In this document: piece by piece, positions 5,180 to 42,983 of the stretch
Position numbering within the stretch: position 1 is the first letter of the stretch
How the letters are laid out: every line of letters begins with the position of its first letter
From: Leptolyngbyaceae cyanobacterium
GTDB taxonomy: Bacteria > Cyanobacteriota > Cyanobacteriia > Phormidesmidales > Phormidesmidaceae
Assembly: GCA_965263355.1 (NCBI GenBank)
Contig: CBDHHL010000023.1
Span: forward strand, 1-44,068
Direction of reading: 5' to 3'
Length of the DNA: 44,068 bases
The notes under the pieces: model-generated
Told to the model about the DNA's origin: nothing
Databases searched by the model: none
What the model saw: the letters and a program-made list of their open reading frames with translations, nothing else
Translations under genes and position numbers: made by a program

Positions 5180-5189
5180 CGCTCACAGT

Positions 5190-5275
5190 ATATCCAAAGT
5201 TGACAGCTTAGCTCTATTCTGGCATTTTCAGGGGATAATGTACTAGTGCGATCGTGTTGAGTTTTATCATGGAAT
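5190..5275 (+). repeat. ~85-bp duplicated methyltransferase promoter/leader, copy 1
   Basis: GTTGACAGCTTAGCTCTATTCTGGCATTTTCAGGGGATAATGT is identical in copy 2 (6119-6204). Confidence 0.9.
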
Positions 5276-5291
5276 AAGGAGGTGATCATTA

Positions 5292-6103
5292 GTGAAGGAA
5301 GATCTAGTTCAACTATTTCAAGGCGAATGCCTTGATGTAATGGGCCAACTAATAGCTGACAAAGTAACTGTAGACGCTATTATTACAGATCCACCTTACG
5401 GTTGAGCACGACCGCTTGCAAATGGGATAGCGTAATCCCGTTTGATGAAATGTGGATGAGATTAAAGAAACTAGTTAAGCCTAATGGGGCAATAGCTTTA
5501 TTTGGAAGTGAGCCTTTTAGTAGTGCTCTTAGGATGAGTAATATTAAAGACTATAAATATGATTGGGTGTGGGATAAAAAACTAGCTGCCAATTTTGCAA
5601 ATGCCCCATACCAACCTCTAAAAGTTACTGAAAATATATTGGTGTTTGGGAAGCATTGTTATTTCCCTCTAAAAAAGAAAGGGAAATTAAAAACAAAAGG
5701 GAGCGGCAATCAGTGGGTGGGAGTGTTCAATAACGGCACTCGCAATGATGGCACTCGCAATGATGAGTATTACCCCACTAATCTTATTCAAGTTAGCAAT
5801 GCGAATAGGATTGACCGACTCCACCCTACCCAAAAGCCCGTTGCTCTCATGGAGTACCTAATCAAAACCTACACGCTACCAGGGGAAACCGTCCTAGACT
5901 TTACTATGGGCAGTGGCAGTACCGGAGTTGCGGCCAAAAAACTAGGTCGTAAGTTTATTGGGATTGAACTAGATACTGATTATTTTGAGATCGCTAAAAA
6001 CCGTATTAATGAAGTATGGGCACCGGGGCAAACAGAGCCTAGCGACAAGAAACCTATTGCAGAAAAAGAGCAGCTAGATATCTGGGATGCATTGGCAAGC
6101 TGA
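5292..6103 (+). pseudogene. beta-class N6/N4 DNA methyltransferase interrupted by 5-nt insertion (pseudogene or recoded)
   Basis: AAGGAGGTGA RBS, GTG 5292, ...GECLDVM...IITDPPYG then TGA 5403-5405; downstream frame TTACKWD...HPTQKP...LDFTMGSGSTG; deleting 5401-5405 restores DPPYGTTACKWD. Confidence 0.85.
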
Positions 6104-6118
6104 ACGGAATCTCACGAC

Positions 6119-6204
6119 ATATCCAAGGTTGACAGCTTAGCTCTATTCTGGCATTTTCAGGGGATAATGTCCTAGTGTGATTGTGCTAAGTTTTGCTATG
6201 GAAT
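6119..6204 (+). repeat. ~85-bp duplicated methyltransferase promoter/leader, copy 2
   Basis: matches 5190-5275 and ends in ATGGAAT, the start of the second MTase. Confidence 0.9.
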
Positions 6205-7310
6205 TAAATCAAGTTATTCAGGGCGATTGCTTGGAAGTGATGGACGGCATCCCTGATAGCAGCATTGATCTAATAGCGACTGACCCGCCTTTTTTTAAGG
6301 TAAAAGGGGGTGGTTCTAAAGGTAAATTCGAGTGGTGGGATCGCGCCTGGGATAATTCAGCAGAATTCTTGAGATGGATTGACCAGCTAGCCGCACAATG
6401 GCAACGCATCTTAAAACCTAATGGCAGCCTGTATTGTTTCGCGAGCACAAAAATGTCAGCACAAGTTGAGGTGTTGTTGAGCGATCGGTTTAATGTGCTG
6501 AATAATATTCGATGGCGGAAGGAACAAGGAAGACATAAAGCATCATGCAAAGAAATTCTTAGAGGCTATTTTCCTGCATCGGAATCAATTATCTTTTGTG
6601 AACATTACGGCGCAGATAACGCAGCTAAAGGCGCAGCAGGTTATCAGGCAAAGTGTGATGAGTTGCGCGGGTTTGTTTTTGAACCGTTGCGAGCGTATTT
6701 GGATGGAGAGAGGACCAAAGCCAAAATTGCACATAGACGAATAATACATATTCTTGGGATGCGGGGGCATGACTCGCATTTTTTTAGCCCTATTCAATGG
6801 AAGTTGCCTCTAGAAGACCAGTACAAAACCCTCCAAGACTCATTCCCCGGTTACTTTCAACGCCCATACGAAGAACTACGTCAGCAATACGAAGAACTAT
6901 GTCAGCAATACGAAGAACTACGTAGACCGTTTATCGTATCGTCAGACGTACCCTACACCGATATATGGGACTTTCCCACAGTGCAAAGCTACCCAGGCAA
7001 GCACCCATGCGAGAAGCCATTGACCATGATGGCGCACATAATAAACGCTAGTTCTAAGCCTAATTCAGTAGTCCTAGATTGCTTTTGTGGTTCCGGCAAT
7101 ACTCTAGTAGCTGCCAAAAAGCACGGACGACATTTTATCGGGATTGATATTGATCCTCATTGGGCAGATGTAGCCCGTGGCAAAGTCGGCAAAGAACAAA
7201 GCTTTGTATCACAGCAGGCTAGATTAGACTGGCTAAAACAACAGACCGCAACACCTGAGGAAGCCCCCAAAAAGCAACAGCTAAGCTTATTGGATTTACT
7301 TGCAAGCTAG
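6198..7310 (+). CDS. beta-class DNA adenine methyltransferase, M.EcoGI/GII-like
   Basis: TDPPFFKVK, LKPNGSLY, LRGYFPASESIIFCEHY, QWKLP, VPYTDIW..YPGKHPCEKP, DCFCGSG; start refined to MELNQ. Confidence 0.85.
   Translation: MELNQVIQGDCLEVMDGIPDSSIDLIATDPPFFKVKGGGSKGKFEWWDRAWDNSAEFLRWIDQLAAQWQRILKPNGSLYCFASTKMSAQVEVLLSDRFNVLNNIRWRKEQGRHKASCKEILRGYFPASESIIFCEHYGADNAAKGAAGYQAKCDELRGFVFEPLRAYLDGERTKAKIAHRRIIHILGMRGHDSHFFSPIQWKLPLEDQYKTLQDSFPGYFQRPYEELRQQYEELCQQYEELRRPFIVSSDVPYTDIWDFPTVQSYPGKHPCEKPLTMMAHIINASSKPNSVVLDCFCGSGNTLVAAKKHGRHFIGIDIDPHWADVARGKVGKEQSFVSQQARLDWLKQQTATPEEAPKKQQLSLLDLLAS
6866..6923 (+). repeat. 21-bp tandem repeat (about 2.8 copies) encoding YEEL(R/C)QQ heptads
   Basis: ATACGAAGAACTAYGTCAGCA repeated in frame. 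Confidence 0.9.
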
Positions 7311-9047: not shown

Positions 9048-10262
9048 CTAAAGGTTCAGCCTAAGCTGCTCCCCTACTAAACGGCTAGACGGTTCAACAC
9101 ACCCTGCCGGAAGCCCGGTCTTACAAGTGCTCCCCTGTCCATTTTTATGCTGTCGTGGGCTATCTCCAGCCCCGACAAAGTTTATATTCTTGGCTGCATT
9201 GCGGTCTCTATCGTGTAGAGCGCCGCAACTAAGACAGCGTATTTCCCGTACAGAAAGGTCTAACTTCCCCCAATGAGAGCCACAGTCAGAGCAATACTGA
9301 CTGGTAGGCTCCCATCGGTCAATGACCCTCACTTCACGGCCATACATGGCTGCTTTCGCTTCCAGCATCGTCCTGAACTCTCTCCAGCCTTGCTGGGATA
9401 TTGCACGGGATAACTTACGGTTTTTCACCATACCCGATACATTCAGGTCCTCTAAGCAGATCACCTGGTTTTCTTTCACCAGCTGCGTACTGAGCTTGTG
9501 GAGGAAATCTTTACGGATATTTCGCGCCTTGGCTTTGAGCTTGGCAACACGTAACCGTGCTCGTTCTCTCCGCTTAGACCCCTTCTGCCTGCGAGACAAG
9601 ACCCGTTGCGCTTTCCTAAGCTTGCGGTCTAGCTTGCTATAGTCTGGCCCTTCTATCGGCTCTCCATAGCTAGGAAAGGCAAACACCTTTATACCTAGAT
9701 CGATACCGATAGAAGGATTTGTTACTGATTCCATGCTGGGCTCAGCTTCTACAACAAAGCTCAGGTAATAATGGTTCTGCCTATCTTTGATGACGGTTAC
9801 AGAACTTGGCTCACTGGGTAAAGGTCGAGACCATTTGGTTTTCACAGTCCCTATCTTTGCCAGGTAAACCTTATTTCCTTTGAGGGAAAAAGCGGTCTTT
9901 GCAAACCTAGCCGTTTGCTTGTTGTCTCTTTTTTTGAACCTAGGAAACTGGATGGGTTTCCCCTTTCGCTTACCCTTGCGGCTATCGAAAAAGTTCTTAA
10001 ATGCCGTCCCTAGATCAATCAATGATTGCTGTAGGGGTACAGCAGAAACATCAGACAACCAGCTACGCTCAACAGTCTTTTTGGCTTGGGTGATACATTG
10101 CTTCGATAGCTCTGTACTCGTCGGCCATTTCTCACCCCTAGGAATGGCCTTGATGGTTGCCAGTGCATCATTCCAAACGACACGGGTGCAACCGAACAAC
10201 TTTGCTAAGTTGGCCTGTTGCTCCTTATTTGGATAGATTCTATACTGGTACCTGAGTTTCAT
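9048..10262 (-). CDS. tnpB: RNA-guided endonuclease TnpB
   Basis: YQYRIYP HTH, GIDLG, LEDLNV, CxxC..CxxC, DRDRNAA; RuvC triad intact. Confidence 0.95.
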   Translation of the reverse strand: MKLRYQYRIYPNKEQQANLAKLFGCTRVVWNDALATIKAIPRGEKWPTSTELSKQCITQAKKTVERSWLSDVSAVPLQQSLIDLGTAFKNFFDSRKGKRKGKPIQFPRFKKRDNKQTARFAKTAFSLKGNKVYLAKIGTVKTKWSRPLPSEPSSVTVIKDRQNHYYLSFVVEAEPSMESVTNPSIGIDLGIKVFAFPSYGEPIEGPDYSKLDRKLRKAQRVLSRRQKGSKRRERARLRVAKLKAKARNIRKDFLHKLSTQLVKENQVICLEDLNVSGMVKNRKLSRAISQQGWREFRTMLEAKAAMYGREVRVIDRWEPTSQYCSDCGSHWGKLDLSVREIRCLSCGALHDRDRNAAKNINFVGAGDSPRQHKNGQGSTCKTGLPAGCVEPSSRLVGEQLRLNL

Positions 10263-10290
10263 TATTTAAGTATACTTGGTCTGAAGCAAA

Positions 10291-10692
10291 ATGGGTGCAG
10301 ATTTAAGGCGGGAAAGGCATAGCGTCACTAACCTGTTAATTCATTTGGTCTGTGTCACTAAATATCGTAGAAAAGTCCTAACTCCCGAAGGGCTTGATAC
10401 CATAGAAGCCGCGTTTAACTCGGTCGCTAAAAGCCTTAACTTTCAGGTGACAGAGTTTAATGGTGAATCCGACCATGTACACGCCCTGATTGAGTACCCA
10501 CCAAAACTGTCGGTGTCTCAACTGGTCAACTCGTTAAAAGGCGTCTCTAGTAGGCGGTATGGGCAAGCTGGGCACCTTAAGCCCTACGGTAGAAAAGCTT
10601 TGTGGAGCCCTAGTTATTTTGTTAGCTCAGTAGGCGGGGCACCTCTGGATGTACTCAAAAAGTACATCCAGGAGCAAGAAAAGCCGTCCTAG
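10291..10692 (+). CDS. tnpA: IS200/IS605 Y1 transposase TnpA
   Basis: HLVCVTKYRR, DHVH (HUH), LWSPSYF, YIQEQ. Confidence 0.95.
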   Translation: MGADLRRERHSVTNLLIHLVCVTKYRRKVLTPEGLDTIEAAFNSVAKSLNFQVTEFNGESDHVHALIEYPPKLSVSQLVNSLKGVSSRRYGQAGHLKPYGRKALWSPSYFVSSVGGAPLDVLKKYIQEQEKPS

Positions 10693-23937: not shown

Positions 23938-24297
23938 ATGCCTCACCAATTAGAACTACCCTTAACCCGTCGTTCTAAAACCAAATGCACTGCCTCATCG
24001 GATGCCATCATCCCAGGCTTAGACGCTAGCCTATGTCGCTGTGATTATTGTCTAACTCGTTCTGATGGCATTTGGTGGGTAGATGTCGACCAACGGCTTG
24101 ACTGCCTCAATAAGAAAAAGCATAAAATCCCTTACTTAATTGAGGTATATCGTCGTCAAACCGTTGGTGTGGGCCACGACGACGATACAAAAGAAACAGA
24201 AGCTCAAAATGCGAAACGTAAGCACGCACAATGGGCCGGTCAAAAGTTCAAACAAACTAATAAATCATGTCAGCAACAACAATTACTAGACCAGTAA
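23938..24297 (+). CDS. hypothetical Cys-containing protein
   Basis: CRCDYC; in operon. Confidence 0.55.
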   Translation: MPHQLELPLTRRSKTKCTASSDAIIPGLDASLCRCDYCLTRSDGIWWVDVDQRLDCLNKKKHKIPYLIEVYRRQTVGVGHDDDTKETEAQNAKRKHAQWAGQKFKQTNKSCQQQQLLDQ

Positions 24298-25805
24298 CAG
24301 AACCAAAGTTCAGCTCTTATCCTTATCCTAAGGAGGGGGCCACAGGTGCCGAGTGGCGAGCTTGGCTAGAAGGAATGGTTGGGGATCTTTGGCATGACAT
24401 CGCAGTTGAATTAACCCCCCTATTAAATAATGTGCAAGTTGAGCGATTCCCAGTTGAATTTATCCCAACATTTGCCGAGGTGGGCGGCAGTGGTTGGTCT
24501 CGTCTTGATGAGGGCAGCTGGCAATGCATTTCCCCTGATGACCTGCCTGCAACCATGGTTCTCGATGTTGAATCCATTGAATTGCAAGCATTCACGGCAA
24601 ACGCTGATATAGACGCATGGTTGCCCTGCCTATGCATTTGCTATGGGGCCGACGGTTACTGGTACGCATGGCAAGAGCAAAACCCAATGTATTGCTGGAC
24701 GGAAACTAAGCGGCGTACTATTCCGTTCCCAACTGGTTGCATCATAATCACTCAGAACGGCGCTGCCCATGATTCGCAATTTCTTAGTAGTTCTTATGCC
24801 GAGTATGGACCAGAGCGTTGTCTATTTATAGATGTGATGGCCCTGGCAATGCTTGTCAGAGGTGTGCATAAAGAACAGCGATCGCAGTATGAGAAGTACA
24901 AGGTTGCGATCGCTAATGGTAAGCCTGCTCCCGATTGGGTAACTCAGGCATCCGACATGGATCTGGCCAGCTTAGCTAGTGACGTACTGGGAATTGAGAT
25001 TCTGAAAACAGTTGGAGGGGAAGGGCCACAGACGCTGTTTGAATATTGTGCTCAAGATGTCTGGATAACCCTTCGATTGTTTCAAGAACTATGGCCACTG
25101 GTTGCGAATATCTATTGCCCCAGTCCAGTAATTTTGTATGGCATGGCGGCAACGACTGGGCTTAGATATCCGGTTGGTGATTGGCAAGAACTTGTTTCGT
25201 ATATAGAAACTGAATACGAAAAAGCCAAAAAAATTAAGCCTAGCAAACGAGATTCTAATGATATTGCTCTAGTCAATTGGGGCAAATCACATTTGCGTAC
25301 ATTTCGCGATGGATACAGCGTTAACGGCATGACCAATATGGGCTTTAACCCTGCTCACGATGTATCAGGGATGCCCAAAAGCACCATCTGGAGTCATCAC
25401 TGGATGATTCGGCAATTTTTAATTACTGGAGTTAGTGATCAGCCGACCACTAGTTACATGCTGTTTGAAGCTAGGGTTCCGATGCCGATTATCCCAGGGA
25501 ATGCATTAGCTAAGACATTAGCCAGCCAGCCGAACATTAAAACGCATTTTGCTAAGCCCCCTGAGCCAGTGAAAGCCAACAAAAAAGCTAAGGCTGATTG
25601 GCTGCAATTAAGACCATTAACCGATGCTATGCATGTCATGATCTGCCTGATTGACTGTTTTTGTGAAGAGTACGAAATTGACGGGTTTCTTGCAATCCCA
25701 GGGCTAGAAACATTGTGGTACGCCGTCGACTCTGCTCAGGAAAAAGAATTTCAAGAATGCATCGCTAAAGCTCAAAGTTTAGTTTACAAATTGATGGCTG
25801 ATTGA
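24267..25805 (+). CDS. DNA polymerase gamma-like 3'-5' exonuclease with degenerate polymerase remnant
   Basis: GWSRL, VLDVE (ExoI), QNGAAHD (ExoII), FIDVMAL, YCAQDVW (ExoIII), CPSPVILYGM; C-term resembles Pol-gamma motif C region but reads GLETLWY. Confidence 0.8.
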   Translation: MSATTITRPVTEPKFSSYPYPKEGATGAEWRAWLEGMVGDLWHDIAVELTPLLNNVQVERFPVEFIPTFAEVGGSGWSRLDEGSWQCISPDDLPATMVLDVESIELQAFTANADIDAWLPCLCICYGADGYWYAWQEQNPMYCWTETKRRTIPFPTGCIIITQNGAAHDSQFLSSSYAEYGPERCLFIDVMALAMLVRGVHKEQRSQYEKYKVAIANGKPAPDWVTQASDMDLASLASDVLGIEILKTVGGEGPQTLFEYCAQDVWITLRLFQELWPLVANIYCPSPVILYGMAATTGLRYPVGDWQELVSYIETEYEKAKKIKPSKRDSNDIALVNWGKSHLRTFRDGYSVNGMTNMGFNPAHDVSGMPKSTIWSHHWMIRQFLITGVSDQPTTSYMLFEARVPMPIIPGNALAKTLASQPNIKTHFAKPPEPVKANKKAKADWLQLRPLTDAMHVMICLIDCFCEEYEIDGFLAIPGLETLWYAVDSAQEKEFQECIAKAQSLVYKLMAD

Positions 25806-25881
25806 GCGAAAAATCTAAATAACCCTTTCACAGCATGGGTTTGACAGATCTTGGGAAAAAATTTGATGTTTATATTTTTGT

Positions 25882-26736
25882 GTGATAGTGAACAACCTAA
25901 TTATTGTTGATACGTCTGTGATCGCCTTCCAAATGTCGGCCCAGATTGACAAGGCAGGCCTAACCGAAACTAATGCTAAAGTTTACGCCTACATGGCGGC
26001 AGAATGGGTTAATTCACTAGGCTGGATTCCCGCGTTGCAATCAACTGGTAAATGCGTTTGGGCAATTGACTCTAAGCCCTACTGGCGTAATCAGCTATTC
26101 CCCGATTACAAAGCAGGCCGCAAACCTAAACCCGCATCATTCCATACTGCGATGGAGGGCATATTAAGCAGCAGTGCTTCTTTGATTGATATAAAATCAC
26201 AAGAAGCCGACGACGTAGCCGCTGCTATTGTTCGGCTATGGCTAGATAGCAGCTCAGGATTGATCGATCAAATCTATTTGGCTACCGTTGATAGTGACTG
26301 GCATGGGTTAGTCCAAAACCCTGATATTTTTTGGTTAAATACTCGCAACCACCCTCCACGCGTTCGAAGTCGAGAAGAGATATTTAATTGGCTTTGCAGC
26401 AAATGGAACCAGCAATCTAAGAAACGTCAGAAATGGTGGGCATTGCCTAGCTATCAATCATTTAGATGTGATGATGTTTGGCGATGGAAAATAGCAGTCG
26501 GCGATAAAGCCGATAACTTAAGCGATGGTTCAGCAAAATACTTAATTGATTTACTGCGACCTCCCAAACAATTTGATATCCTAGAATCAAAGGAATCTGT
26601 AAATACTATTTACAGAGGAGTAAATTTAGCAAGTAAGCCTGATTTGAGCCTTGCTCATGAATGTAAGCAGGGTATGTTGTCACTAGGGGCACTTCCCCCC
26701 ATCGAAATAATTAGCCTGAAAGTTTTAGTTTCATAG
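25882..26736 (+). CDS. 5'-3' exonuclease / flap endonuclease (T5/T7 gp6/PolI N-terminal type)
   Basis: IIVDTS, DSKPYWRNQLFPDYKAGRK, EADDVAA, DSDW, GDKADNL. Confidence 0.9.
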   Translation: MIVNNLIIVDTSVIAFQMSAQIDKAGLTETNAKVYAYMAAEWVNSLGWIPALQSTGKCVWAIDSKPYWRNQLFPDYKAGRKPKPASFHTAMEGILSSSASLIDIKSQEADDVAAAIVRLWLDSSSGLIDQIYLATVDSDWHGLVQNPDIFWLNTRNHPPRVRSREEIFNWLCSKWNQQSKKRQKWWALPSYQSFRCDDVWRWKIAVGDKADNLSDGSAKYLIDLLRPPKQFDILESKESVNTIYRGVNLASKPDLSLAHECKQGMLSLGALPPIEIISLKVLVS

Positions 26737-31666: not shown

Positions 31667-33056
31667 ATGAAGCTCCCCCACCTTAAAGAGGATGGGGGTG
31701 TCTTATGCTAACTTGAGGTTATCCCTAACCCACAGGTCACATAAGCAAGCCCAGCTTCCGGGCTTCCGTCTAGAACTTTTGCTAGAGCGGAACTCACGAT
31801 CCTTTCGGTCAGTGAGCTTAAGAATTCCTCTAGCTGCGATGTTTTGACTCCCATTGAGGTCGCAGTTATACCGCTTGCCAGAAGAAAATTTTGCTAAAGC
31901 GTAGTTTTTAGAGTCACGCTTCACGACTCCAGAGCCATCATAAGCAAGCTTCGAAGTGTAGGCGGCAACGATATCTATGACTTTGCCACCAAGTTCCTTC
32001 CACTTCATTTCGGTATAATCGCGAATCTTGCTTTTGAGCCATCCGTGGAACCGCTGACGGAGGTTAGAGCGCTTTTTGCCGCCCTTAGGTTTCCATCCTT
32101 TTAAGTTCTCAAAGACAATAGCTTCAGAGTTGTGGTCTTTGGCTATGTTAACTATTCGCCTAGAAACGATGTGGCCAATCTGGGTGTTGATGTTCCGACA
32201 TTTACGATAGGTGTTAGAGCAAAATCCTTTATGGAGTTTGCCGCCTTTCCCCATCGTCTTGTTGGCTCTCATTGATACAGACTTTAGGCGTTTGTCACGA
32301 CGGTCTATGTCTCTTCCAGGGTGAATAAATTCACGATAGATTACAGTACCGCAATGGGTTACGACTGAAACTGTAGCTGTAGTATTTATTCCAAGGTCTA
32401 CAGCAACCACATTTTTGTCAGGGTTCCGCTTTACTGGCTTGCAATGAAACGGAACCGATAAATGACATGACTTAGCATTGAGAATGAGTGACGGTGACAG
32501 CATTTTGTTACCTGCTATCTCATGGCGATCCCTAAGCCCTGTGATTTGAACCATCGTCCAAACCCAATCAGACCCGGTGAACACCTTGATCTCAACCTTG
32601 TCTAAGCCATGCAGCTTGTAGCACTGCCCTTTGTGCAGCGCTGGATAGCACCCAGCATCAGGGTTTAGCAATGGGGGTTTAGCATCTCGACGTTTGCGAG
32701 ATTGCCCGCAGTGCCAGTCACGATACCGGGTCATGTAGCTACTAACCTGGCCAATCGCGAAAGTGATAGCGGCTCTACGGTAGTAGCTGGGGAACTTATG
32801 AAACACCCGGTTGATTTGCGGGTATTTCACGTCTGGGCGGTTGCTGGTTGCGTGCATTAGACGCTCAACCGCTGATGTTCTCTCATCTGCCGTGAGCGGT
32901 GCTAGCTCTGGCCAGTGCGTAAAGACAATACCCACTAAATACCGACACACACGACGATAGATCTTAATCGTTTCACCAAACAGCAGGCGCTGTTCAGTGG
33001 TTGGATTAAGCGTCCATTTGTCGGTACGGATGATTTTTGTGGGTTTTTTCATCTTC
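31667..33056 (-). mobile_element. tnpB-only IS200/IS605 (IS1341-type) element
   Basis: right-end hairpin CCCCCATC/GGTGGGGG then AGCTTCAT; CCAT at left junction; no tnpA; ends inferred. Confidence 0.65.
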
Positions 33057-33058
33057 AT
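31703..33058 (-). CDS. tnpB: RNA-guided endonuclease TnpB
   Basis: AVDLGIN, IVFENLK, YTSK, YNCDLNGSQNIA; Zn-finger Cys absent. Confidence 0.9.
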   Translation of the reverse strand: MKMKKPTKIIRTDKWTLNPTTEQRLLFGETIKIYRRVCRYLVGIVFTHWPELAPLTADERTSAVERLMHATSNRPDVKYPQINRVFHKFPSYYRRAAITFAIGQVSSYMTRYRDWHCGQSRKRRDAKPPLLNPDAGCYPALHKGQCYKLHGLDKVEIKVFTGSDWVWTMVQITGLRDRHEIAGNKMLSPSLILNAKSCHLSVPFHCKPVKRNPDKNVVAVDLGINTTATVSVVTHCGTVIYREFIHPGRDIDRRDKRLKSVSMRANKTMGKGGKLHKGFCSNTYRKCRNINTQIGHIVSRRIVNIAKDHNSEAIVFENLKGWKPKGGKKRSNLRQRFHGWLKSKIRDYTEMKWKELGGKVIDIVAAYTSKLAYDGSGVVKRDSKNYALAKFSSGKRYNCDLNGSQNIAARGILKLTDRKDREFRSSKSSRRKPGSWACLCDLWVRDNLKLA

Positions 33059-41528: not shown

Positions 41529-42752
41529 CTAGACAAGTCTACCGTTACAGTCTTTGGTGATTAGTTCCTGTTTCATAGCTGACCTAGCATGACTACTAGG
41601 GGTCATCACAGCTCCACAGGCCACAACGGTAGAACTTACCGCTGGAATTGGCTTATCTGGGTGCCAATTCTTGATGTTTATTGCTGCATTTAAATCTCTA
41701 TCTATTTTTGTTCCGCAATCAGGGCAATGATAGACACGTTCTTTTAGCGGCATTTTGTGCCGATGATTATTGCAGCCTGAGCAAATTTGAGAGCTAGGAA
41801 ACCAGCGATCAATAATCACTAGCTCACTTTGAAACTTCTCACACTTGTATTCAAGCTGTCTTTTGAACTCGTATAACCCAGCATCAGCAATAGCACCCGC
41901 TAACCGATGGTTCTTTAAGAATCCAGATACATTCAAGTCCTCAATCTTCACTGTGCTGTGGTTCTTAGCTAAGTGAGTAGTGAGTTTATGAATCGCATCT
42001 TTACGGATATTGGCAATACGTTGATGCAATTTAGCGAGTTTACGAACAGCTTTTTTCCGATTGCTAGAACCTTTCTGTTTACGACTTACAGACCGCTGCA
42101 ACCGTTTTAACTGCTTAAGGTGCTTACGGTAAGCTTTCGGGTTTTCAGCCTCAGTGCCATCGCTTAGGACGGCTAAAGACTTTAACCCTACATCCACACC
42201 AACATCGGGTCTATCGCTAGCGACTGTAGGTTGTTCAACCTCAACCTTGATAGCAATAAACCAGTCATCAGCAGCACGGCTGATAGTGCAATTATGGGTA
42301 GCTGCTATAGGCAACTCCTCAGACAGCTTTATCCAACCGATAGTAGGCAGCTTTACCCGCTTACCGTCAGTGCAAATCTTAGGCTTAGCTTTAGTTCCAG
42401 ATTCAAGGTAAAAGCTATCTTTAACGCCTTTCTTCTTAAACCGTGGCTGCTTAGATGTCTTTTTGAAACACCTATCCCAAGCTTTTCTAAGGTCTTTAAG
42501 TGCCTGCTGAGGGGCATTTTTATTACTGAGGTAATACCAAGGATTATCTGATTTAACCTCAGCAACTAAACGCTTATGCAAGTCAATAGCACTAGGGACT
42601 TTAACCGACTTATCAGACTCCCGTTGCTTAAGTACATCCAAGACAACGGCATTAGCCCAGTTATAAGCGTGTCGTGCTGTGCCTGCATGTTGAGCAAACA
42701 ATGACCGCTGCTTGTTATTTGGCTCTAACCGTGTTTTGAATGAAAGAAGCAT
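41529..42752 (-). CDS. tnpB: RNA-guided endonuclease TnpB (IS607-type)
   Basis: MLLSFKTRLEPNNKQ, GVDVG, IEDLNV, CSGC..CPDC, IDRDLNAA; start refined to 42752. Confidence 0.93.
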   Translation of the reverse strand: MLLSFKTRLEPNNKQRSLFAQHAGTARHAYNWANAVVLDVLKQRESDKSVKVPSAIDLHKRLVAEVKSDNPWYYLSNKNAPQQALKDLRKAWDRCFKKTSKQPRFKKKGVKDSFYLESGTKAKPKICTDGKRVKLPTIGWIKLSEELPIAATHNCTISRAADDWFIAIKVEVEQPTVASDRPDVGVDVGLKSLAVLSDGTEAENPKAYRKHLKQLKRLQRSVSRKQKGSSNRKKAVRKLAKLHQRIANIRKDAIHKLTTHLAKNHSTVKIEDLNVSGFLKNHRLAGAIADAGLYEFKRQLEYKCEKFQSELVIIDRWFPSSQICSGCNNHRHKMPLKERVYHCPDCGTKIDRDLNAAINIKNWHPDKPIPAVSSTVVACGAVMTPSSHARSAMKQELITKDCNGRLV

Positions 42753-42809
42753 ATCGACCTTATCCGTGTTACATTTACTGGTATACCAGATAATGATGAG
42801 GCTTGACAA

Positions 42810-42983
42810 GTGCCTACAGAGAAATTTAAGCCAAATGAAAAGACTGCTTACGACAGAACACCGGTACAAGTTAAGGTATTGCCTGGTGTTAGAGAAAAAC
42901 TAAAAGCTATCCCAGGATGGCAGAATCTACTTAGGCAGAAAATCGATGAAATAATATCTGGACAGTCGGATAGTTTTGTCTAG
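42810..42983 (+). CDS. 57-aa RHH-like DNA-binding protein
   Basis: MPTEKFKPNEKTAYDRTPVQVKVLPGVREKLKAIPGWQNLLRQKIDEII...; not in ORF track. Confidence 0.65.
   Translation: MPTEKFKPNEKTAYDRTPVQVKVLPGVREKLKAIPGWQNLLRQKIDEIISGQSDSFV

Follow-up and report, generated by a model that had tools for sequence, protein, structure and literature searches.

The window analysed here, by which we mean the whole stretch of 44,068 nucleotides from contig CBDHHL010000023.1 of a Leptolyngbyaceae cyanobacterium (assembly GCA_965263355.1), carries on its forward strand a DNA methylase gene that is divided over two open reading frames by exactly five nucleotides. ORF1 (5292..5405) starts with GTG at 5292 and runs for 37 codons to the catalytic DPPYG, which is followed by a TGA. 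ORF2 (5408..6103) begins at the predicted resume codon ACG and encodes, in 231 codons, TTACKWD..., a variable middle, HPTQKP and the SAM-binding motif FTMGSG. The junction (5388-5428) reads ...GAT CCA CCT TAC GGT TGA GC ACG ACC GCT TGC AAA TGG GAT, where GGT (5400..5402) is the predicted take-off glycine codon and TGAGC (5403..5407) is the coding gap, composed of the stop TGA (5403-5405) and the predicted landing triplet AGC (5405-5407), which share one letter. ORF2 matches Pfam N6_N4_Mtase (PF01555), and both the catalytic DPPY and the SAM-binding motif of that family are present, divided over the two ORFs. The original prediction of an exact 5-nt split at DPPY-G is thus confirmed, its placement of the insert at 5401-5405 being equivalent to 5403-5407. 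Its description of both halves as otherwise intact is also borne out: there is no second lesion in 268 codons, and a Shine-Dalgarno-like AAGGAGGTGA (5276..5285, forward strand) precedes ORF1. Removal of the five nucleotides restores the junction of two intact relatives, P0006 and P0128, whose N-termini are nearly identical to that of the window gene. A TTG at 5402-5404, in frame with ORF2, overlaps the stop.

The split gene is preceded by a 94-nt element (5182..5275, forward strand) that is 87% identical to 6111-6204, located ahead of a second, uninterrupted N6/N4 methylase with a DPPF motif (6198..7310, forward strand). Both copies end in ATG GAA T. The first continues as ATG GAA TAA (5269..5277, forward strand), likely the stub of an original MELNQ-type start and a candidate 5' junction of a replaced N-half, and the second as ATG GAA TTA at 6198; intact relatives of the MELNQ type are P0005 and P0127. 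Loose read ends suggest further copies of this element elsewhere in the population, and at 5230-5234 a variant present in all three sequencing runs continues into sequence resembling the ends of the IS200/IS605 elements of the window, likely an insertion into the upstream element. TnpB-type genes are found at 9048-10692, 31703-33058 and 41529-42869, one of them with TnpA. The second methylase contains three tandem 21-nt copies (YEELRQQ-like) at 6866-6928, and additional intergenic elements are duplicated at 2093-2167/2656-2730 (75 nt) and 30306-30352/30933-30979 (47 nt). Positions 24267-26736 encode a DNA polymerase-like exonuclease and, as a gene of its own, a 5'-3' exonuclease, and Pfam recognised no polymerase domain in the window proteins scanned; a promoter scan returned 3 sites vs 4.8 expected. 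Since its genes include a primase, a helicase, exonucleases, a lysozyme, Rha and KilA-N, the window appears to belong to a phage-like element, and a cyanobacterial host is indicated both by 13 copies (0.4 expected) of GCGATCGC, which we take to be HIP1, a cyanobacterial mark, and by the TnpA, whose best match (72%) lies in a Chroococcidiopsis plasmid.

The nearest proteins (P0003-P0013 and P0123-P0129) constitute a mosaic clade with common ends and exchanged middles: three N-termini, at least seven middles and two C-termini occur in shuffled combinations, and several middles coexist in the same samples. In the window methylase the mosaic joints lie at 5455/5566-5579 to 5817-5822. Among 16 clade members, known as protein sequences, 9 start after DPPY, and their C-halves are complete and carry five or more different middles; the other 7 are intact, and in two of them the N-terminus is almost that of the window gene. 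Close DNA relatives of the clade gave no match in IMG/VR, and in plasmids only short, distant ones.

The gap is a property of the DNA and not of this assembly. It is present at 5403-5407 in the contigs of all three runs (two samples of one study, possibly the source), and these contigs show no difference from the window over 5288-5421 at a depth of 154-238, as far as assembled contigs, in which rare variants are invisible, can tell. An assembly error is therefore rejected, and the gap is neither unique to the assembly nor absent from the contigs built from the reads, which had been named in advance among the grounds for abandoning the idea. A low-depth allele in the runs (records 6 and 14) has the same gap with another downstream part, and the only gap-free contig (record 4) represents a diverged gene with 13 other differences.

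Stop-led gaps recur at this codon in many relatives. Among 80 viral loci picked by similarity alone, three carried a gapped gene. A scan whose pattern allowed 1-26 extra bases and did not require a stop gave 10 matches in genomes, 62 in viral contigs and at least 122 in metagenomes (33 of 64 parts scanned; about 250 estimated). Among the matches listed, 156 distinct cores had extra bases, and in 148 of them a stop directly followed the glycine codon, which rejects chance as the explanation and supplies the recurrence with varied sequence that had been proposed as a check. Every out-of-frame core (71/71) begins with a stop, the eight cores without one are in-frame inserts of 3 or 6 nt, and inserts of 1-2 nt, although allowed, were not seen among the 156. 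For the comparisons below, these matches were pooled with those of a scan that required the stop, all scans carrying a TACKWD requirement; in the resulting 183 gapped genes, which are related, so that neither counts nor gap strings are independent events, and which were sampled differently from the intact controls, all three stops are used (99 TGA, 49 TAG, 35 TAA). Gap length ranges from 4 to 12 nt over all three frames, 9 and 6 nt being commonest, with 88/183 in frame. The very string of the window, TGAGC, also occurs in the HIP1-rich loci L103, L110 and L130, where the N-half is a different one and the helix is strong. In a FastTree phylogeny of 108 gapped and 131 intact rows, whose reading is limited by mosaicism, the state changes 19 times (79 when shuffled), and starred branches force at least 8 changes; the gapped state is therefore clustered without forming one clade.

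Some loci fall beside this main set. In other methylase subfamilies, of the FMGK and VLNK types, a stop-led gap follows D[P/L]PYG in L109, L170 and L197 (duplex z -4.0, -6.7 and -2.4; L197 with a nuclease upstream) and is also present in L099 and L119, where the helix is not significant. Six further pattern matches are chance-like or ambiguous. In the HIP1-rich L237, L245 and L257, which have 4-nt gaps, the third base of the take-off codon and that of the last triplet vary in concert (GGA/GAA, GGT/GAC).

Both halves of the gapped genes are under purifying selection, as had been asked of a functional gap, with the evidence standing at the level of the family. In 37 disjoint gapped pairs of equal gap length, dN/dS was 0.14 in the N-half, 0.08 in the first nine post-gap codons and 0.11 in the C-half; the same three parts gave 0.19, 0.04 and 0.07-0.10 in 17 intact control pairs. 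Closed C-halves reach at least 199 aa in 120/127 cases. The dS of the gapped pairs was 0.34 in the N-half vs 1.1-1.8 elsewhere, as expected from RNA constraint together with a cassette moving onto different C-halves, with the selection of pairs contributing. This purifying selection excludes general inactivity of the gapped genes.

The gap sequences follow a rule that concerns their last triplet. Among the 91 distinct strings of take-off codon plus gap, 72 end in GGN, 15 in HGN and 4 in a triplet lacking the middle G; no string has an earlier GG within the gap, and the inner gap bases are poor in G (13 of 378). The HGN endings have C or T at the third base in 14/15 cases vs 34/72 for GGN (Fisher p 0.001), and each of the 15 follows a GGY take-off codon, so that these HGY landings fit the two-of-three re-pairing predicted for tRNA-Gly(GCC). 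The window, with GGT and AGC, is such a two-of-three match, and AGY landings are found in 29/183 gapped genes. Unmatched take-off and landing is also frequent in the family, with GGC or GGT to GGA in 52/148. Because the gaps fall in all three frames, the mechanism that crosses them has to be independent of frame, and no single shift or readthrough rule will serve.

A long-range hairpin accompanies the gap. Its predicted duplex has z<-3 in 116/155 gapped vs 1/72 intact genes, and the best pairing register is exactly 109 nt in 105/157 genes. In the motif, CCC is used by 136/183 gapped vs 10/73 intact genes and GGY by 167/183 vs 22/73, preferences that we attribute to pairing with an arm in the N-terminal extension. 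In a covariation set of 116 genes, aligned in register through four nearly invariant positions, the P/L codon has its wobble base paired in 99% (C-G 64, G-C 20, T-A 17, A-T 10) vs 51% after shuffling. RNAalifold, given 30 hand-chosen rows (one of them, L155, mis-cut), returned the long-range helix alone. In the helix alignment, with the L155 row included, 93% of cells are paired, 38 with two-sided change, a level reached in none of 500 shuffles; measures that count pairs or pair types do not exceed shuffles, and slid controls gave 37-52%. The helix ends at the 5' edge of the gap.

In the window itself this helix is weak, with a duplex z of -0.4, a fold z of -2.09 (8/200 shuffles as good) and four contiguous pairs. 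The predicted 5' arm (5292..5305, forward strand) covers the GTG start region at the distance usual in the family, about 110 nt ahead of the take-off codon, in a register of 110-112 nt and not 109, and the predicted 3' arm (5387..5399, forward strand) consists of the D-P-P-Y codons; pair probabilities are about 0.5-0.84. The Shine-Dalgarno-like AAGGAGGTGA is an alternative partner of the DPPY codons, with a probability of about 0.4 in two of three folding windows. An arm placed on a start codon preceded by a Shine-Dalgarno sequence is found in 13 genes, most of those with 5-nt gaps included.

The gap is also linked to a nuclease gene. A protein of 190-220 aa with HTH, NUMOD3 and HNH matches (Pfam/PHROGs) ends about 130-230 nt before the take-off codon, and its gene is upstream in 46/83 dereplicated gapped loci with at least 1 kb of upstream sequence vs 2/60 intact ones; both of these intact loci also contain a gapped gene. 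In 36/58 cases the nuclease is preceded by a methylase 5' stub that ends at or just before DPP/DLP. At the level of the family, therefore, a nuclease gene occupies a fixed site of a conserved gene of which empty alleles exist. Whether the stub is the original 5' end of the host gene received 20/30 cases for and 9 against (p 0.096). In L031, L083, L087, L282 and L406 the stranded stub is in frame, or nearly so, with the nuclease gene and may supply its start. The nuclease had no match in plasmids and three, none T4-like, by tblastn in 50,697 phage records; a Foldseek search with its model (pLDDT 90.5) gave no match at E<=0.001 and only weak HNH domains. The window holds no nuclease of this HTH-NUMOD3-HNH (A1) type. 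Two features are suggestive of a former cassette there: the ATG GAA TAA at 5269-5277, at the very place where the second element copy begins a MELNQ gene, and, in a variant seen in all three runs, the 30 letters before 5273, which read GSVDISELI-stop by hand translation, like the stub-to-nuclease junctions.

Cultured phages carry the same parts. Geobacillus phage vB_GthS_PK3.6 has GGT TAA C GGC, an arm on the start codon (duplex z -3.2) and no nuclease; its methylase is annotated as gp63 and gp64, and the split is not mentioned in the accessible portion of the paper on this phage (PMC10459684). Vibrio phage VnaP retains the stub, the nuclease and a decayed N-half and has lost the C-half, and Pseudoalteromonas phage H101 has the nuclease with no methylase after it. 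In Geobacillus phages PK3.5 and PT9.1 and in Brochothrix phage BtpYZU01 the methylase is annotated as a single gene. The L394 and L388 stretches gave no match in a blastn search of phages.

Taken together, these sequence patterns suggest that ribosomes probably cross the stop-led gap by a short programmed translational bypass, taking off from the glycine codon and landing on a glycine-like triplet that follows closely. In the window, the ribosome would pause at GGT, where the peptidyl-tRNA-Gly is paired, with TGA occupying the A site; codons emerging from the ribosome would re-pair with the arm about 110 nt upstream, favouring forward sliding; the tRNA would re-pair at AGC through two of three positions, and decoding would resume at ACG to give DPPYG-TTACKWD. 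That pairing of mRNA at the exit side may drive forward sliding has been proposed in the accessible part of bioRxiv 10.1101/2024.12.09.627546, and it is by analogy that we infer the same driver for the methylase gap. The miniature hop first proposed for this site (glycine take-off, stop, near-cognate AGC) is in this way the best-supported reading, recurrence and selection being as it predicted, and it stands as a candidate drawn from comparative data. The purpose suggested with it, the limiting of a toxic methylase, was not supported. What accompanies the gap is an HNH endonuclease cassette, and this association suggests that the gap arose as a protection from self-cleavage. Most likely the gap is borne by a homing cassette and crossed by a short bypass, cleavage and immunity being proposed by analogy with MobA. 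The mobile unit would consist of an HNH homing endonuclease plus a replacement methylase 5' half with its hairpin and gap; it would insert at the DPPY motif, stranding the 5' half of the host gene, and the gap would spoil the nuclease target in the cassette's own copy.

For the window the hop is probably inefficient, given the absence of a nuclease and the weaker signal. Its copy may hop poorly or be decaying, with the nuclease lost, a weaker hairpin and an AGC landing, and it may be dispensable, with the near-identical N-terminus present in the intact alleles P0006 and P0128 and a second methylase next door. A stronger version holds that the family hops and that the window copy is a decaying remnant making little or no enzyme, its nuclease gone, its hairpin eroded and its landing degraded. 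The weak helix, the AGC landing, the missing nuclease, the adjoining intact methylase, the intact sister alleles and the decayed example of VnaP all fit with this, but we consider it unlikely: the 268 codons have no second lesion, the gap sits on the high-depth allele of three runs as well as on the diverged allele with another middle (records 6 and 14), the clade proteins that start after DPPY, known as protein sequences, keep their full C-halves over at least five middles, and neither the AGY landing nor the layout with the arm on the start is peculiar to this gene.

Could the two ORFs instead yield two polypeptides, an N-piece of 37 residues and a C-piece whose translation restarts at the TTG, which together form a split enzyme, with the hairpin serving translational coupling? 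Split methylases are known, PK3.6 is annotated in this manner, the TTG is in frame with ORF2, and a start codon lies in the 30 nt ahead of the resume codon in 49/183 gapped genes. We nevertheless regard this as improbable, because 134/183 have no ATG, GTG or TTG in that interval and 90/183 have a stop of the downstream frame inside the gap, even though the nine codons after the gap are as constrained as their dN/dS indicates; moreover, no Shine-Dalgarno sequence lies ahead of the TTG, and the landing rule would be left unexplained.

Two further possibilities are very improbable. (i) The hairpin could guide removal of the gap from the RNA, as a micro-intron, by cutting and joining or by a transcriptional skip; alternatively, a minority of DNA molecules could lose it. 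The GG..GG ends would permit seamless excision and the helix does end where the gap begins; however, no stem continuing across the gap was found (dG -4.5 vs -3.9 shuffled), the lengths vary from 4 to 12 nt, the sole gap-free run contig is a diverged gene with many other differences, and the leading stop of all out-of-frame cases and the third-base rule of the HGN endings are signatures of translation. We know of no bacterial splicing of introns so short. (ii) In-frame gaps could be read through as extra residues and out-of-frame ones overcome by +1/-1 shifts, or all gapped genes could be inactive scars. That 9- and 6-nt gaps are commonest, that nearly half of the gaps are in frame and that natural hops are rare would agree with such a patchwork; against it, all three stops are used, one hairpin serves every length, two of the genes with a downstream-frame stop (L031 and L220) have out-of-frame gaps in which this stop stands just before the landing triplet, a -1 shift in the window would lack cognate re-pairing, and inactivity as a general state is excluded by the selection described above. 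Origins of the extra bases other than a homing cassette were also rejected: they do not repeat their neighbours, as a 5-nt target-site duplication would; a remnant of an IS200/IS605 right end, considered because the gap reads CTCAA on the minus strand, which we likened to the right-end motif, and because three TnpB elements lie in the window, is inconsistent with gap sequences that vary widely in the family; and the gaps do not end in G, as opposed to a group I intron remnant.

Short bypass over a stop, to which we now return, has well-studied counterparts, described here from the accessible parts of the sources cited. The methylase gap works like the MobA/gene 60 system of T4 without being a member of it. 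Common to both are an HNH endonuclease inserted in a conserved enzyme gene, as in the MobA / gene 39-gene 60 cassette (bioRxiv 10.1101/2022.08.31.505936 and 10.1101/2024.12.09.627546), a new N-terminus borne by the element and in part homologous to the host gene, a stop-led gap that follows a glycine codon at the 3' edge of the element, a structure on the 5' side of that gap, and persistence of the gap once the nuclease is lost; in MobA/gene 60 the insert prevents self-nicking and remains when the nuclease has gone (bioRxiv 10.1101/2022.08.31.505936). The differences are as clear: (i) the host gene is a PF01555 methylase instead of a Topo2L gene; (ii) the gap is 4-12 nt, with no room for a mini-SD, vs 20-50 nt (50 nt in T4 gene 60 itself); (iii) one helix spans about 110 nt, where gene 60 has a take-off tetraloop stem; and (iv) landing is often a two-of-three match, whereas in gene 60 homologues one tRNA reads both take-off and landing. 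The synthetic stop-hops of E. coli (PMC5009743) and the 10-nt bypass in the terminase of Streptomyces phage Hau3 (PMC10732093) are likewise short hops over a stop or hungry codon, with a matched or near-matched landing and a glycine context; in contrast to these synthetic or rare-UUA cases, the methylase gap is natural and selected, occurs in many host groups and has a covarying helix, a linked nuclease and true stops. The byps of Magnusiomyces mitochondria (PMC5009743) are also inserts ignored in translation, with imperfect take-off and landing and two-of-three pairing, but the methylase gap involves bacterial ribosomes, one fixed site and a stop occupying the A site. Once joined, the two halves would make an ordinary beta-class N6/N4 phage DNA methyltransferase (PF01555, phrog_67), with DPPY first, a variable middle and HPTQKP and the SAM-binding motif last, and the window gene departs from such methylases in the interruption at its catalytic motif.

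According to the accessible part of a 2016 review (PMC5009743), bypasses like that of gene 60 but short had long been presumed to occur in nature, and the natural bypasses listed in the portions of the literature at hand are gene 60 and its homologues, Streptomyces phage terminases and yeast mitochondrial byps only. We found no description of the stop-led methylase gap in a search of main texts, few of them from subscription journals, nor in the accessible parts of PMC5009743, PMC10732093, PMC3711429, PMC10885494 and PMC4190342, and the string 'methyl' is absent from the text of bioRxiv 10.1101/2022.08.31.505936. The unexplained split C5 methylase and HNH-linked odd start of Corndog, reported in the part of PMC4351075 available, are a different case.

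We propose that the methylase gaps quite probably represent a second, independent and widespread family of natural programmed bypass. In hundreds of phage methylase genes, ribosomes would skip a stop-led gap of 4-12 nt under the action of a helix whose span is fixed at 110 nt of coding sequence; the genes would be disseminated by an HNH homing endonuclease of their own, and the bypass would persist once that enzyme is gone. Where the helix lies over the start codon, as in the window, ribosome spacing and enzyme dose would also depend on it. If this is true, the 91 distinct gaps under one fixed helix make both the landing rules and the proposed driver, zipping at the exit side, testable in small reporters, and in PK3.6 a cultured carrier of the gap is available. 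It would also mean that cassettes combining a nuclease with a bypass have more than one origin, and that activity is probable for many phage methylases at present labelled fragments or pseudogenes.
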